NCBI GenBank assembly: GCA_963724765.1
Contig: CAVRVY010000004.1
Span: 224,001-288,000, forward strand
Length of the DNA: 64,000 nt
Source: an uncultured delta proteobacterium
GTDB lineage: Bacteria; Desulfobacterota; Binatia; Binatales; Binataceae
Reading direction: 5' to 3'
Position 1 is the first letter of the stretch; each line of letters opens with the position of its first letter. This document shows positions 58,901 through 63,862 of this stretch, one piece after another. Under the pieces are notes generated by a model that saw nothing but the letters and a program-made list of their open reading frames with translations, had not been told where the DNA came from and made no database searches. Made by a program: the position numbers and the translations under genes.

Positions 58901-60139
58901 CTAAATCAGCTTGTCGCGTTTGAGCTCTTCGATCTCTCCCAGCTTGAGCCCCAGGAGCTCGCCGTATACGCGCTCGTTGTCGTGGCCAACGCCGACCGCG
59001 CCGCGGAAGATCTTGCCCGGCGTGGCCGAAAACTTCGGCACAACTCCGATACCCTTGACCTTGCCCGCCTGCTCGTCGGTCCATTCGACGTGCATGTCGC
59101 GCGCCTGGTATTGCTCGTTTTCCGCCATGTCCTTGCTCGACATGATCCGGTTACAGGCCACGTTATTCTCGTTCATGTGCCGCACGACTTCGACGGCGGG
59201 GCGCTCGTTGATCCACCCACGCAGCAACGCGTCGAACTCGATCCCTTCCATCGATTCGATGTCCAGGCGCGCCTTCTGCCATTTCGGATCAGCCGGGTCC
59301 AGGCCGATCGCCCGCACCACGCGATCGTAAACCTCGCCAATCGCGCCCAGCACCACCCATCCGTCGCTCGCCTCGAAGCTGTCGAGCGGCTGGAAGCCCT
59401 GCGCCTTGTTGCCCGAGCGTTCGCGCACCAATCCCTGTTGGAAGTACTCGACCATCGTGCCGCCGAGCGTGCGATGGATCGCTTCGTACTGTGCGATGTC
59501 GATCGCCTGGCCCTTGCCGAAGCTTCGCGCGTAGGTCAGCCCCGCCAGCGACGACCATAGGGTGAACAACGCCGTCAGGTAGTCGCCCGTCCACGGTGCG
59601 GCGCGCGAGGGCGGGGTCTCGGGAAAGCCGGTCTGATGCATGATGCCGCCGAAGGCCTGGCCCACGATGTCGTACGAGGTGCGCCCGATATAGTCGGGAT
59701 GGCCATATTGGCCGTAAGAGCTGACGTGGGTAATCACCAGCTTCGGATTGACTTTCCATACCGAGGCGTCGTCGAGGCCCCATTTCGGATAGGTCCCGGC
59801 CTTCGAGCTTTCCATCCAGATGTCGGCGCGCTCGACCAGGCGCAGGAACAGGTCGCGCCCGCGCGGCCGAGTGAGGTCAAGCGAGACGCAGAAGACGTTG
59901 CGCCGCTCCTGCACCCAGTTGGTCGCGGTCTCGCCCTTGCCGTCGCGCGTCTTGAGCCGGATGCCGACGGTGCGCCATCCCAGGTCGCCCACGCCGGGGC
60001 GTTCGATCTGGATGACCTCGGCGCCCATCTCGGCGGCCAGCGCCGCACCAAACGGCTGCGCGATCAAGGTGCCGCTCGAGACGATTTTGACCCCCTGGAG
60101 CGGTCCAAATGCCTCGGGTACAAGGGTTTTCTCCGCCAT
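58901..60139 (-). CDS. CaiB/BaiF family III CoA-transferase
   Basis: FGPLQGVK, GAEVIQIE, GDY catalytic Asp region. Confidence 0.92.
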   Translation of the reverse strand: MAEKTLVPEAFGPLQGVKIVSSGTLIAQPFGAALAAEMGAEVIQIERPGVGDLGWRTVGIRLKTRDGKGETATNWVQERRNVFCVSLDLTRPRGRDLFLRLVERADIWMESSKAGTYPKWGLDDASVWKVNPKLVITHVSSYGQYGHPDYIGRTSYDIVGQAFGGIMHQTGFPETPPSRAAPWTGDYLTALFTLWSSLAGLTYARSFGKGQAIDIAQYEAIHRTLGGTMVEYFQQGLVRERSGNKAQGFQPLDSFEASDGWVVLGAIGEVYDRVVRAIGLDPADPKWQKARLDIESMEGIEFDALLRGWINERPAVEVVRHMNENNVACNRIMSSKDMAENEQYQARDMHVEWTDEQAGKVKGIGVVPKFSATPGKIFRGAVGVGHDNERVYGELLGLKLGEIEELKRDKLI

Positions 60140-60435
60140 CGTGACCTCCTGGTGAAATACCGCCGTTCATCAAAACCGAATCATGCACCGTTTGCGCCGA
60201 AGGGGGCAACCCAAGCGCGTCTCAAGCGCATCTGATGACTAATCGCACTTCGCCGGACGTTTGCCGCATCTGCAAGCCGGGTTATTATACTGATGAATGC
60301 CGCGATTCACGGGCGGGGCGGGTGTGAAATCCGCGCCAGATCTATGCCAGATTTTTTGCCGAACTCTGTGACACACTCTTCGTCAAATCCAGAGACCCCA
60401 ATCATAAGACCCAGTCATAAGAAAGGTCCGCCGCG

Positions 60436-61764
60436 ATGAACGACGCGATTGACCAGCGCGAGCTTACCTTCATGGCCCTGGCCGGCCTCATCGGCGGCGC
60501 GCTCGGATGGCTTCCGGTCGAGCTGGTCAGCCACGGACACACGATCACGCAGGTCGAGAACATCTGGACCCAGCTCGCGGGGGTCGCCTCGATGGCGCTG
60601 TTCTGGGGGCTGGTCGGCGGCTTCATCGTCGCGGCGCAGGGCAAAAGCCTGCAATTCACACCGGCAGTCACGCGGCGTTTCCTGGTTGGACTTGTGGTCT
60701 GCTTCCTTATCGGACTGCCCGCGGTTTATTACTCCAACGTCGTCTTCACGATGATCCTCTCGGCCGGCGGATGGGGCGCCAATCAGGCCGGTTCGGAGAT
60801 CTATCTGCGCGTTGCGCGGGTGATCGGATGGGTCCTGATGGGGTTCATCTGCGGCGCCGGCGTAGGCCTGGCGAGCGGCTCGCTCAGGGATCTCGCGGGA
60901 TCGCTGCGCAACATCGTAAAGGGAGCGGTCGGCGGATGGGTGGGCGGCTTCGTCGGCGGCGTGGCCTTCGATATCATCGGGGCTAACGCGAGCGGTCTCT
61001 ACTCGCGGCTGTTTGGGCTGTGCGCGCTCGGATTGGCGGTCGGACTGCTGATCGGGCTGGTGCAGGAGTTGACCAAGAGCGCGTGGCTCAACGTCCAGGC
61101 GGGACGGCTGCGCGGACGCAGCTTCAATATCGATCGTGCGGTGGCGACGCTCGGGCGCGCCGAAGAAAACGTGGTCGGGCTTTTCGGCGATCCCGGCGTG
61201 CAGCCGCGCCATGCGGTGATCGAACGCCACGGCAACAGTTACGTGCTGAAGAATCTCGCCGTGCAGCAGGGCGTGTTCCTCAACGGCAACCGGATCGAAA
61301 CCGCCGAGCTGAACGAGGGCGACCGGATCAGGATTTCCGACTACGAACTGAGCTTTCATCTCAAGCGCGCCAGCGCCGGGCCGCGCCCTGCCGTCGTGCG
61401 CCAAAACGGTCAAAACGGCCGAGACGGCGCGCCGGCCTCCGTGTCCGCCGGGCCCGCGATGGCGCCGCACGTCGGACGGATGGCGACGCCGTGCCTGGTC
61501 GGCGCCAACGGACGCCGCTACGAACTGCGTCCGGGAGCGCCAACGACGTTGGGCCGCGCGATCGACAACGACATCGTTATCTCCGACGCTTCGGTCTCGC
61601 GCCGCCACGCGACTATCGTGCCGCAGGACGGCGGTTTCGCGCTGCGCGACCTGGCCAGCCAGAACGGCACTTTCATCCGCGGCCAACGGATCGACGGCGC
61701 ACGTCAGCTCGCCAACGGCGACGACGTGCGGTTGGGCGACGCGCCGTTTGTGTTCCATGGCTGA
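60436..61764 (+). CDS. Multi-pass membrane protein with two C-terminal FHA domains
   Basis: Gly-rich TM segments; FHA1 LGR...RHA...NG; FHA2 LGR...SRRHA...SQNGT. Confidence 0.9.
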   Translation: MNDAIDQRELTFMALAGLIGGALGWLPVELVSHGHTITQVENIWTQLAGVASMALFWGLVGGFIVAAQGKSLQFTPAVTRRFLVGLVVCFLIGLPAVYYSNVVFTMILSAGGWGANQAGSEIYLRVARVIGWVLMGFICGAGVGLASGSLRDLAGSLRNIVKGAVGGWVGGFVGGVAFDIIGANASGLYSRLFGLCALGLAVGLLIGLVQELTKSAWLNVQAGRLRGRSFNIDRAVATLGRAEENVVGLFGDPGVQPRHAVIERHGNSYVLKNLAVQQGVFLNGNRIETAELNEGDRIRISDYELSFHLKRASAGPRPAVVRQNGQNGRDGAPASVSAGPAMAPHVGRMATPCLVGANGRRYELRPGAPTTLGRAIDNDIVISDASVSRRHATIVPQDGGFALRDLASQNGTFIRGQRIDGARQLANGDDVRLGDAPFVFHG

Positions 61765-62179
61765 AACCGGCATGGCTGAAATGGTCAGAACCGAAACGGG
61801 CAGGAATGAAACCGCAACGACACGGGCGCGGTTCTGTTCGCAATGCGGCCAGCCGGTAGTAGTGGCCGAAGCGGTGTACTGCAAGCAGTGCGGCGCGCGA
61901 CTGGGTGGCGGGGAATGGCTCGGCGATCTGAGGTCACCTGCATTGATCGCGGTCGTGCTAAGCCTGGTGCCGGGGCTCGGCCATTTTTATGCCGGGCGCG
62001 CGGGGCGCGCGATCGGATGGTTCTTCGGGACACTTTGGGCTTACGATATTTCACCGTCGCTAGGCGTGCTGATTCACTTGGTATGCGCAGTGTCGGCGGC
62101 GCGCGCCGCCGCGCTTGATGCTGAGCGGCGCGGGACTCGCGCCTCCGGGGCGTTGACGGCAGGGCCGCCACCGCAGTAA
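61757..62179 (+). CDS. Zn-ribbon plus TM2-like membrane protein
   Basis: CSQCG...CKQCG; LSLVPGLGHFYAG. Confidence 0.82.
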   Translation: MAETGMAEMVRTETGRNETATTRARFCSQCGQPVVVAEAVYCKQCGARLGGGEWLGDLRSPALIAVVLSLVPGLGHFYAGRAGRAIGWFFGTLWAYDISPSLGVLIHLVCAVSAARAAALDAERRGTRASGALTAGPPPQ

Positions 62180-62197: not shown

Positions 62198-63862
62198 ATG
62201 ATTGCGCCAAACACCATAGTCGGCGGCCGTTACCGCGTCGTGAAGCCGCTCGGCGGCGGCGGGATGAAGCTGGTCTACCTGGCCGAGGACCTGCGGCTGG
62301 CGGCGCGCCGGTGCGCGCTGGCCGAGGTGGTCGATAATTTCACCAACCCCGACGCGCAGCGTCAGGCGGTCGACGCCTTCCAGCGCGAGGCCGACATGCT
62401 GGCGCGGCTTAACAACGAGCATATCCCCCGCGTCTTCGACCGCTTCAGCGAACAAAACCATCACTACCTGGTGATGGAATATATCGACGGTGCGACGCTC
62501 GAGGAGGAGACGAAGCTGGCGGGGGGCCGGCTGGCTCAGGCGCGCGTCATCGACATCGCGCTGCAAATCCTCGATACGCTCGAGTACCTGCACGGGCTCG
62601 AGCCGCCGGTCATCTATCGTGACCTCAAACCGTCCAACGTCATGATGATGGCCAATGGACAGGCCAAGCTCATCGACTTCGGTATCGCGCGCCATTTCCA
62701 GCCGCAGCAGAACGCGACCATGATCGGCACGCAGGGGTATGCGCCGCCCGAGCAATATCGCGGCAAGGTCGAACTGCGCTCGGACCTCTACGCGCTCGGC
62801 GCGACGATGCATCATGCGCTCAGCGGCCGCGACCCGGCCAACGAAGCGCCGTTCAGCTTTCCACCGCTCGCCACGTCATGTCCCGGCGCCGAACCAGCGC
62901 TGGCAGCGCTGGTCGACGACGCGCTCGCCTACGACGTCGAGCATCGCGTGCAAAGCGCGGCGGAATTCAAGCGCCGGCTGCAAGATATACGCGACGGCAC
63001 TCGCGCCGGCGTCGCTCCCACCGATGCGACAGCGCCATCAGTGACACTGGAACACGCAAACGGCGGAGAACATACACTCGCGACGGGAGCATCGCAGTCA
63101 ACCGCGCCGTCGCAGACGGCCACCGGCTCGCGCTCGCAGCTTCGGCTGCCGCTCGGAAGCGCCAGCGCGCCACGTCCCGCATCGCCGTCCGCGCCAACGG
63201 TGTTGCGTACGGCATCGGAGATCGATTGTACGAAATGCGGCCGGGCGATTCCCTCCGATTCGCGCTTCTGTTCCTTTTGCGGCGCGGAGGTGAGTGACGC
63301 GCACGCCGCGGCCGGCGTCGCATCCAATCACGAGGCCGAGACCGTGCTCCTTTCGGTGCCGCCCTCGGCCCAAGAGCGGCCGCGCGTGACGCCCCGCGGC
63401 GCGCGACTTTACCATCGGACGCGCAGCGCGCGCCGTCCCCTGCTGATCCTGGTGTTGATCTTCGTGAGCGCATTCGCGACGGTCAGAGCGGTCTCATGCC
63501 TGCAAATGAGCGACAATTCGGACGGCAACCCGCCCGACGCAACGCGCGCCGACGCACCAATACCCGCGATGCCCGCGCCTGACGCCTCGGCGCCCGGCAC
63601 AGAGCCCGAACCTTTTCCGCCTGACTCTCCGTCCTCGGCTCCGGAGTTTCGCGCCGCGCGGCTGGATGCCTTTCGGGCAGCGCTTGACGCCGGCGGATTA
63701 ACCGGCGTGCACTTCCGGATGGTGGGCGACACGATGGTGTTGACCGGGACGGTGCCGACCACGACCGACGAAGCGATGGTGCAAATGCTGGCGTTGAACG
63801 TCGCAGGCGTCGCTTCGCTCAAAGATCATATCCGCGTGCAGGACGGCTCCGCCGGCCCATAG
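62198..63862 (+). CDS. Hanks-type Ser/Thr kinase with Zn ribbon, TM and BON domain; WNK-like lysine placement
   Basis: GGGGMK loop, YRDLKPSN, DFG, GT.GYAPPE; CTKC...CSFC; TM; V.L.G.V...V.GV.S..D.I.V BON pattern. Confidence 0.93.
   Translation: MIAPNTIVGGRYRVVKPLGGGGMKLVYLAEDLRLAARRCALAEVVDNFTNPDAQRQAVDAFQREADMLARLNNEHIPRVFDRFSEQNHHYLVMEYIDGATLEEETKLAGGRLAQARVIDIALQILDTLEYLHGLEPPVIYRDLKPSNVMMMANGQAKLIDFGIARHFQPQQNATMIGTQGYAPPEQYRGKVELRSDLYALGATMHHALSGRDPANEAPFSFPPLATSCPGAEPALAALVDDALAYDVEHRVQSAAEFKRRLQDIRDGTRAGVAPTDATAPSVTLEHANGGEHTLATGASQSTAPSQTATGSRSQLRLPLGSASAPRPASPSAPTVLRTASEIDCTKCGRAIPSDSRFCSFCGAEVSDAHAAAGVASNHEAETVLLSVPPSAQERPRVTPRGARLYHRTRSARRPLLILVLIFVSAFATVRAVSCLQMSDNSDGNPPDATRADAPIPAMPAPDASAPGTEPEPFPPDSPSSAPEFRAARLDAFRAALDAGGLTGVHFRMVGDTMVLTGTVPTTTDEAMVQMLALNVAGVASLKDHIRVQDGSAGP

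Follow-up and report, generated by a model that had tools for sequence, protein, structure and literature searches.

Receptor-type Hanks kinases of bacteria, such as PknB and PknA of Mycobacterium tuberculosis and StkP and Stk1 of Firmicutes, combine an N-terminal kinase domain with one transmembrane helix and a sensor domain outside the cell, and are genetically linked to FHA proteins. The same organization is found in a kinase gene near the end of the 64,000-nucleotide stretch of DNA analyzed here (the window; assembly GCA_963724765.1, contig CAVRVY010000004.1, positions 224,001 to 288,000 of the forward strand), which comes from an uncultured soil bacterium of the family Binataceae. The 554-residue product differs from the PknB/StkP group in several respects: it has alanine at the lysine position of the third beta-strand (beta3) and lysine at the third residue of the glycine-rich loop (G-loop), a BON-like sensor instead of PASTA repeats, a zinc ribbon in the juxtamembrane linker, and a YRD instead of an HRD motif, the last of which it has in common with its canonical sisters.

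Movement of the beta3 lysine is known from eukaryotes, where the WNK kinases serve as the textbook example of how a catalytic residue can migrate within an enzyme. Relocation to beta2 or the G-loop has been described in WNK and in POMK (also SGK196) (PMC10211241, PMC13519141), and both WNK1 and POMK depend on their beta2 lysines for activity (PMC10211241); these works and those that follow are cited here for excerpts of their text. The WNK lysine lies at the core position of PKA G55, the last glycine of the GxGxFG motif (Kannan et al, 2007, PMC1821047), and the same 2007 survey of microbial kinases presents WNKs as the only functional eukaryotic protein kinase family without the beta3 lysine, with a CAK-chloro kinase-like subfamily carrying arginine at the same G-loop position (PMC1821047). 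Among bacteria, seven pseudokinase families (ActPs1-3, GLW, CP1, DYD, and DLHK) are distinguished in an atlas of Ser/Thr kinases (bioRxiv 10.1101/2025.01.12.632604) and in a review (PMC12599244), and loss of the beta3 lysine defines all seven (bioRxiv 10.1101/2025.01.12.632604). In the excerpts of these two works, WNK is cited solely as a eukaryotic analogy (bioRxiv 10.1101/2025.01.12.632604, PMC12599244).

Domain layout and the exchanged residues

The gene encodes a Hanks-type Ser/Thr kinase of the membrane-bound receptor type, and its start codon is supported by conservation of M1 and I2 across 44 orthologs. An earlier note, made from the letters of the window, had placed the kinase at 62198-63000; this covers the kinase domain, but the gene runs on to 63862, about 860 nt further. 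The Pfam Pkinase profile (PF00069) matches residues 12-215 with 120.2 bits against a cut-off of 31.7, and the AlphaFold2 model of the kinase domain, with a mean predicted local distance difference test (pLDDT) score of 93.8, adopts the bilobal kinase fold. The closest structures in Foldseek are PknB, Stk1, and PknA, at E-values of about 1e-19 and TM-scores of 0.76-0.84 (PknB 6i2p: E 1.8e-19, 34% identity), and WNK3 appears at rank 43 with 23% identity. Likewise, a phmmer search of PDB sequences returned StkP (1.1e-32) and PknB (7.4e-31) on top. Two residues of the protein, the G-loop residue M23 and the gatekeeper residue M93, correspond to bacterial-specific features according to the kinase atlas (bioRxiv 10.1101/2025.01.12.632604).

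The G-loop stretch reads L18-GGGGMKLVY-27 and the beta3 stretch R38-CALAE-43. In the phmmer alignment to StkP (9ruj), K24 stands opposite the third glycine of GxGxxG (GGGGMKLVY over GRGGMADVY) and A42 opposite the beta3 lysine (CALAE over VAVKV), which is therefore missing. The strands of the AlphaFold2 model agree with this register: beta2 comprises residues 24-31 and is opened by K24, and beta3 comprises residues 37-45 and contains A42. The reading given in the earlier note, RCALAE with Ala42 (GCC, 62321) and LGGGGMKLVY with Lys24 (AAG, 62267), is thus exact by both codon reading and alignment. The same holds for its statement that the remaining motifs are intact, as the alphaC glutamate (E64, in FQRE), the D-x-K-x-x-N catalytic loop (Y140-RDLKPSN-147, with D142, K144, and N147), the DFG aspartate (D160-FG), and the glutamate of the APPE motif (A182-PPE, E185) are all present.

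C-terminal to the kinase domain, the juxtamembrane zinc ribbon has four cysteines (C344, C347, C358, and C361) that are invariant in the 44 orthologs. The BON domain named in the earlier note is not detected by Pfam at its threshold in this protein (PF04972, residues 514-548, 16.6 bits against a cut-off of 27), but the profile is matched at E<=0.01 in 28 of the 44 orthologs (best 1.7e-05). AlphaFold2 models the C-terminal ~80 residues (pLDDT 83) as alpha-beta-beta-alpha-beta (helices 7-24 and 48-62, strands 30-35, 38-45, and 66-73 of this segment), and the best Foldseek match is E. coli OsmY (E 6.8e-04, TM-score 0.69), followed by DolP, Kbp, and BonA, with the periplasmic domain of CdsD also ranking high. 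A BON-like fold of the C-terminal domain is therefore supported by the model. Since a kinase domain is followed by one predicted transmembrane helix and this C-terminal fold, the protein appears to have a PknB-like layout, with the kinase inside the cell and a small sensor domain outside.

Origin and retention of the exchange

Homologs were collected by a HMMER scan of the kinase domain against 1.84 billion cluster representatives and by a word-indexed search of 90%-identity clusters. Together, these searches gave 270 proteins, including the query, and 335 matched kinase-domain stretches, which were read at positions 24 and 42. K24 with A42 (K/A) was found in 181 stretches, many of which are near copies, and lysine at position 42 preceded by Gly, Ala, Ser, Thr, Cys, Asn, or Glu at position 24 in 101. 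Single stretches showed K/K, K/S, and K/I, one had lysine at position 42 with position 24 uncovered, 19 had other combinations, and 30 covered neither position. A fairer count comes from the representatives at 50% identity, to which the query and two same-genome paralogs were added; these amount to 140 domains covering both positions: 50 K/A, one K/S, 81 canonical (a residue other than lysine at 24, lysine at 42), and eight other. No intact kinase combining K24 with K42 or with I42 was found among the 335 stretches, a survey that included no search aimed at basal intermediates; the lone K/K case, domain 1 of P0204, is degenerate, with QRV and T replacing YRD and K.

Maximum-likelihood trees (quick search, LG+G4, root not inferred) placed the 51 K24 domains among these 140 on one branch, with a support of 99 in the Shimodaira-Hasegawa-like approximate likelihood ratio test (SH-aLRT). 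When the two trait columns were removed, the 51 domains still lay on one side of a branch (SH-aLRT 97), with one change on the tree. The trees thus indicate that the exchange has a single origin. The sister of the swapped clade consists of six canonical G24/K42 kinases with ~50% identity, one of which is a paralog from the query's own genome. The earlier note had proposed to check whether the two positions covary. They do change together in all intact kinases (51 swapped versus 52 canonical domains), but given the single origin this "covariation" represents one retained event and not repeated independent ones.

To define what separates the two sets, the 51 swapped domains were compared with 52 canonical domains sharing at least 42% identity with the query, and a column was called discriminating if a residue is present in at least 85% of the swapped clade and at most 15% of the canonical set. 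Positions 24 and 42 are the only such columns. Lysine occupies position 24 in 51/51 swapped domains and in 0/52 canonical relatives, which have G (46), A (3), or S (3) there. At position 42, the swapped domains have alanine in 50 cases and serine in one, with lysine in 0/51, versus lysine in 52/52 canonical relatives. A pattern this complete is not a matter of chance.

The swapped representatives are diverse, with a mean pairwise identity of 54% and a minimum of 40% (canonical set: mean 50%), and their catalytic residues are retained in 50 or all 51 members (Table 1), as is E185 of the APPE motif (51/51). Per-site entropy over 270 positions correlates between the two sets (r = 0.80), and its mean is 1.45 bits in the swapped and 1.60 bits in the canonical domains at similar divergence, so that the swapped clade is no less constrained and, in these alignments, gives no sign of general active-site decay. 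Codons could be read in 24 genomic loci, one of them from an unpublished genome (G282). K24 is encoded by AAG in 19 and AAA in 5, and A42 by GCC in 19, GCT in 2, GCG in 2, and GCA in 1. By the genetic code, Gly-to-Lys (GGN to AAR) and Lys-to-Ala (AAR to GCN) each take at least two base changes, which bears out the earlier description of two reciprocal multi-nucleotide changes. An assembly or sequencing error was considered as a source of the two residues and is ruled out by their presence in 24 independent loci with synonymous codon variation.

Among the loci examined, the exchange was not seen to extend beyond one family. Close homologs are named "Candidatus Binataceae" in their source records, and among 151 sampled genomes from the source's class, an ortholog is present in 18/18 genomes of the family, including the source genome (17/17 without G282). 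All of these carry K24/A42, and the orthologs in the other family genomes are 74-93% identical. Two family genomes have extra paralogs that are K/A as well, which shows that the swapped module has been duplicated. Only one other family in the class sample gave matches (12/18 genomes), all of them canonical kinases, and at the phylum level matches at E<=1e-60 were found in 2 of 201 genomes. A one-genome-per-species scan, in which the best 80 of at least 600 matched stretches were examined, yielded six K/A loci, 72 canonical loci (from Chloroflexota, Methylomirabilota, Eremiobacterota, Acidobacteriota, Planctomycetota, and others), one locus without N-lobe coverage (L046), and one S24/A42 locus (L071). 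The only K/A locus with a non-Binataceae label among those listed, L006 ("Proteobacteria bacterium"), adds nothing to the taxonomic range, because its genome also has a 72%-identical ortholog and both canonical paralogs.

Individual homologs show further variation. L071, from an Anaerolineales metagenome-assembled genome and otherwise of the canonical family, was read as S24/A42 in the automatic alignment, with the string SRWAV around beta3. The lysine may truly be lost, or the reading may come from a shifted alignment or a frameshift. Three further proteins, located within the swapped clade or close to it, are rare exceptions. P0242 combines K24 with I42 and has lost both YRD (YGG) and DFG (DMP), making it a likely pseudokinase derivative. 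P0126 is K24/A42 and has lysine instead of glutamate at position 43, and P0168 has Ser42, YSD for YRD, and a one-residue insertion in the G-loop. Among 38 clade members (P0129, P0166, and others), C-terminal modules include FGE-sulfatase (3), Sel1 repeats (4), TPR (4), and PQQ_2 (1); as the members differ in these modules, the K24/A42 module has been recombined with several sensor or interaction domains. Finally, the search of cluster representatives returned P0135, a predicted protein of 1069 residues in which a kinase fragment of ~54 residues, spanning the catalytic loop to DFG, is repeated in tandem in 15 near-identical copies. Its sequence resembles that of a plant receptor kinase, and it is probably an assembly artefact.

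Relation to WNK and readings of the exchange

The swapped clade shares with WNK the lack of the beta3 lysine and the presence of a lysine at the third-glycine/beta2 position (WNK position as given in PMC1821047), together with retention of the alphaC glutamate, the catalytic loop, and the Mg-binding aspartate. It differs in having alanine and not cysteine at the beta3 position and DFG with phenylalanine in place of the leucine of the WNK chloride site, in the lack of WNK accessory domains in the Pfam scan, and in being a membrane receptor with an FHA partner. Above all, its tree neighbours and the rankings of PDB matches give no indication of common descent with WNK: because the nearest sequences, folds, and sister clades are canonical bacterial kinases, the likeness appears to be convergent and not inherited, as the earlier note had supposed. 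Sequence comparison thus provides good support for a convergent, WNK-type relocation of the lysine in a clade of bacterial Hanks kinases, which would have made the same two-position exchange independently. In line with the impression recorded in the earlier note, no bacterial report of this swap was found in the full-text literature searched (main texts of Creative Commons-licensed PMC papers and bioRxiv).

POMK and the CAK-chloro subfamily represent further independent moves of the positive charge from beta3 to the G-loop or beta2 (PMC10211241, PMC1821047). However, POMK has lost HRD and DFG and phosphorylates a sugar, and CAK-chloro uses arginine, has an altered residue in the DFG region, and has lost the alphaC glutamate, whereas the swapped bacterial clade changed nothing else. 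The bacterial pseudokinase families share with this clade the absence of the canonical VAIK lysine. Compared by their published descriptions, most of them also lack the HRD aspartate and/or the DFG aspartate, both of which the swapped clade keeps. DYD has arginine at beta3 and no alphaC glutamate, DLHK combines a retained catalytic-loop aspartate with degraded ATP-binding and DFG motifs, and CP1 is a cytosolic family linked to a COG3899 ATPase domain. The swapped clade loses the lysine alone and keeps D142, D160, and E64, and thus does not match any of the seven families.

Taken together, these comparisons lead us to favour, with somewhat better than even confidence, the reading that the gene encodes an active single-pass receptor kinase of the PknB kind in which the ATP-anchoring lysine has moved from beta3 to Lys24. 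Catalytic activity as such is probable, judging from the sequence. In the proposed mechanism, the side chain of Lys24 would reach into the space vacated by Ala42, pair with the still-conserved Glu64, and hold ATP by its alpha and beta phosphates, like Lys233 in WNK1, and Asp142, Lys144, Asn147, and Asp160 would perform phosphotransfer as usual. The kinase would probably autophosphorylate the conserved activation-loop threonines T174 and T178, and would probably produce the phosphothreonine marks for recognition by the two FHA domains of a membrane protein encoded in the same operon. Several observations argue for this reading. Lys24 occupies the same core position as the WNK lysine. The alphaC glutamate, whose canonical role is pairing with the catalytic lysine, is conserved although its beta3 partner is gone. 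Furthermore, constraint on every catalytic residue is undiminished, and the module was reused, both by being duplicated and by being fused to other sensor domains.

Other points weigh against it. Both the enzyme activity and the role of Lys24 as the functional lysine are inferred. The swap arose once, as far as the trees indicate, so that there are no independent replicates of the co-change. The two canonical paralogs in the same genome could supply phosphothreonine to the FHA protein, and the operon is therefore no proof of kinase activity. In addition, intact HRD and DFG motifs without a beta3 lysine are found in several eukaryotic proteins that are poor or inactive kinases, and reviews list such cases. 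Finally, POMK in which the lysine was returned to beta3 showed better catalysis (PMC10211241), and a relocated lysine thus need not be optimal.

The main rival is an ATP-binding pseudokinase, catalytically silent or very weak, that would serve as scaffold or allosteric partner to, for instance, the genome's two canonical kinases, with Lys24 serving only nucleotide binding or fold stability. The shared loss that defines the seven bacterial pseudokinase families speaks for such a protein, as does the loss of YRD and DFG in at least one K24-bearing relative (P0242). Besides the two canonical paralogs, the same genome encodes a separate degenerate kinase fused to a PP2C phosphatase, so non-catalytic kinase folds are evidently used in this organism. 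Against this stand the retention of Asp142, Lys144, Asn147, Asp160, and the APE glutamate in 50-51 of the 51 clade members, the site-wise constraint that mirrors that of the canonical sisters, the finding that only two columns differ from active-looking relatives, and the additional losses that the described bacterial families carry and this protein does not. We therefore regard a pseudokinase as unlikely, though as an alternative to be taken seriously.

A second alternative retains an active kinase but assigns Lys24 another task. ATP would then be held in place by other groups, for example Mg2+, the backbone of the G-loop, or Arg37, with which beta3 begins, and K24 would be kept for another function, for instance regulation or contact with substrate or membrane. 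R37 is indeed at least 90% conserved in 38 clade members, but it (or lysine) is equally common in the canonical relatives and hence is not a change that accompanied the loss of K42. Moreover, no columns but those of K24 and A42 are clade-specific, and K24 lies at the core position of the proven WNK lysine (PMC1821047). This alternative is clearly less probable than a pseudokinase. A similarly low probability attaches to a more far-reaching proposal, in which the lysine move creates a regulatory pocket, either for a small anion or metabolite near the DFG backbone or through G-loop-dependent activity, and turns the kinase domain into a convergent ligand-gated switch comparable to the chloride, potassium, and osmotic sensing of WNK. 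As only two residues separate the clade from its canonical sisters, the swap alone would, on this proposal, be enough to turn an ordinary Hanks kinase into a sensor.

Least probable of all is a sensor that copies WNK directly, with chloride binding at the vacated beta3 site and inhibiting autophosphorylation, and with the BON domain providing a tie to osmotic stress, as the earlier note had suggested. The fold match to OsmY, an osmotically induced protein, is the observation that favours the osmotic part, for which the BON-like extracytoplasmic domain is the only basis; the PDB titles of DolP speak of phospholipid binding by BON domains, and a BON fold therefore does not imply osmosensing. As to chloride, we take Leu369 of WNK1 to occupy the position of the DFG phenylalanine. 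The numbering points the same way, with Gly370 following (PMC7606576). According to the same review, the WNK lysine placement may leave room for chloride in the active site, and the WNK1 chloride pocket uses Leu369, with L369F abolishing chloride sensitivity (PMC7606576). Here, however, the residues corresponding to Leu369 and Leu371 of WNK1 are Phe161 and Ile163, of which Phe161, present in 50/51 clade members, matches the chloride-insensitive L369F variant, and no column besides 24 and 42 has changed relative to canonical kinases. WNK-like chloride sensing is accordingly unlikely on the residues present, and the sensor as a whole very much so.

The clade offers an unusually clean natural experiment, since no other clade-specific column differs and a canonical paralog is available in the same genome. 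It raises the questions of whether the G-to-K/K-to-A exchange is sufficient for activity, whether single-mutant intermediates are dead, which bears on the evolution of a swap in which each step needs two nucleotide changes, and what, if anything, the vacated pocket gains. Annotation by rules under which any kinase that lacks the VAIK lysine counts as a pseudokinase would place this clade wrongly. If its activity is confirmed, it will be a bacterial addition to the short list of relocated-lysine kinases (WNK, POMK).

Genomic context

The kinase gene stands third in a tightly spaced group on one strand, with a conserved operon order, and is preceded by an FHA gene and a small zinc-ribbon gene (Table 1). 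The zinc-ribbon gene overlaps the end of the FHA gene, and its stop codon lies 18 nt before the kinase start; its Pfam matches to TM2 and DUF6677 fall below the cut-off. In K/A ortholog loci, most of which have short flanks, a homologue of the FHA gene is found directly upstream in 23/23, the zinc-ribbon gene in 22/23, and a PHP-domain gene, which starts ~100 nt 3' of the kinase in the window, as the downstream neighbour in 20/23. The FHA-kinase neighbourhood fits a phosphothreonine-based signalling unit.

Table 1. Features of the kinase locus, with positions in the window. Conservation counts refer to the 51 swapped clade representatives unless stated otherwise.
Feature	Position	Strand	Basis
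Membrane protein gene, 442 aa; about five N-terminal hydrophobic segments, two C-terminal FHA (phosphothreonine-binding) domains	60436..61764	+	Pfam FHA 1.1e-34, two stretches
Small zinc-ribbon membrane protein gene, up to 143 aa; two hydrophobic segments	61748..62179	+	Pfam Zn_ribbon_NUD 4.5e-06, above cut-off
Receptor-type Ser/Thr kinase gene: kinase domain, linker, zinc ribbon, one transmembrane helix, Pro-rich linker, BON-like domain	62198..63862	+	Pfam, hydropathy
Kinase catalytic domain, residues 12-267	62231..62998	+	Pfam Pkinase, AlphaFold2, PDB folds
Lys24 codon (AAG), third-glycine position of G-loop, first residue of beta2; proposed relocated ATP-anchoring lysine	62267..62269	+	StkP alignment, model
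Ala42 codon (GCC), at the beta3 VAIK lysine position	62321..62323	+	StkP alignment
Glu64 codon (FQRE), alphaC glutamate	62387..62389	+	E in 50/51, and in 52/52 canonical relatives
Catalytic loop Y140-RDLKPSN-147 (Asp142 catalytic, Lys144, Asn147)	62615..62638	+	D142 50/51; K144 and N147 51/51
DFG motif, Asp160-Phe161-Gly162	62675..62683	+	D160 51/51, F161 50/51, G162 51/51
Cytoplasmic juxtamembrane zinc ribbon, residues 344-365, four Cys	63227..63292	+	Pfam Zn_Ribbon_1 (28.5 bits; cut-off 25)
Single predicted transmembrane helix, about residues 414-433	63434..63502	+	Strongest Kyte-Doolittle 19-residue window of the protein
BON-like domain, presumably extracytoplasmic, about residues 481-548	63638..63841	+	Model fold, Foldseek, ortholog Pfam matches
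Start of PHP-domain gene, 224 aa	63962..64000, where the window ends; runs on to about 64636 (G000:C4)	+	Pfam PHP and PHP_C above cut-off

The PHP/PHP_C product belongs to a predicted metal-dependent phosphoesterase family. On the other side of the group, a gene of CoA-transferase family III (58901-60139, minus strand; Pfam 3.4e-86) is oriented divergently, and the ~300-nt intergenic region at 60140-60435 should hold the operon promoter. Part of the window is contained in 20 of the 22 sequencing runs listed, which are metagenomes from peat, soil, sediment, and rhizosphere, and no RNA run containing it is among the 22.

Only five ORFs of the source genome are kinase-like; PP2C was matched twice and FHA seven times, and the other kinases and both PP2C matches are all located on another contig. 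A second Ser/Thr signalling cluster, outside the window and on another contig (L119, G000:C3:1440000-1449000), contains, in order, an FHA protein, a canonical kinase-FHA fusion of 614 aa, a 723-aa fusion of a zinc ribbon, a degenerate kinase domain, and a PP2C phosphatase, a canonical kinase of 789 aa, and another FHA protein. The 789-aa kinase is the nearest canonical sister of the swapped clade. The order kinase, degenerate kinase, kinase also occurs in L008 and L017, and in L012 and L013 two canonical kinases were the only ones matched.

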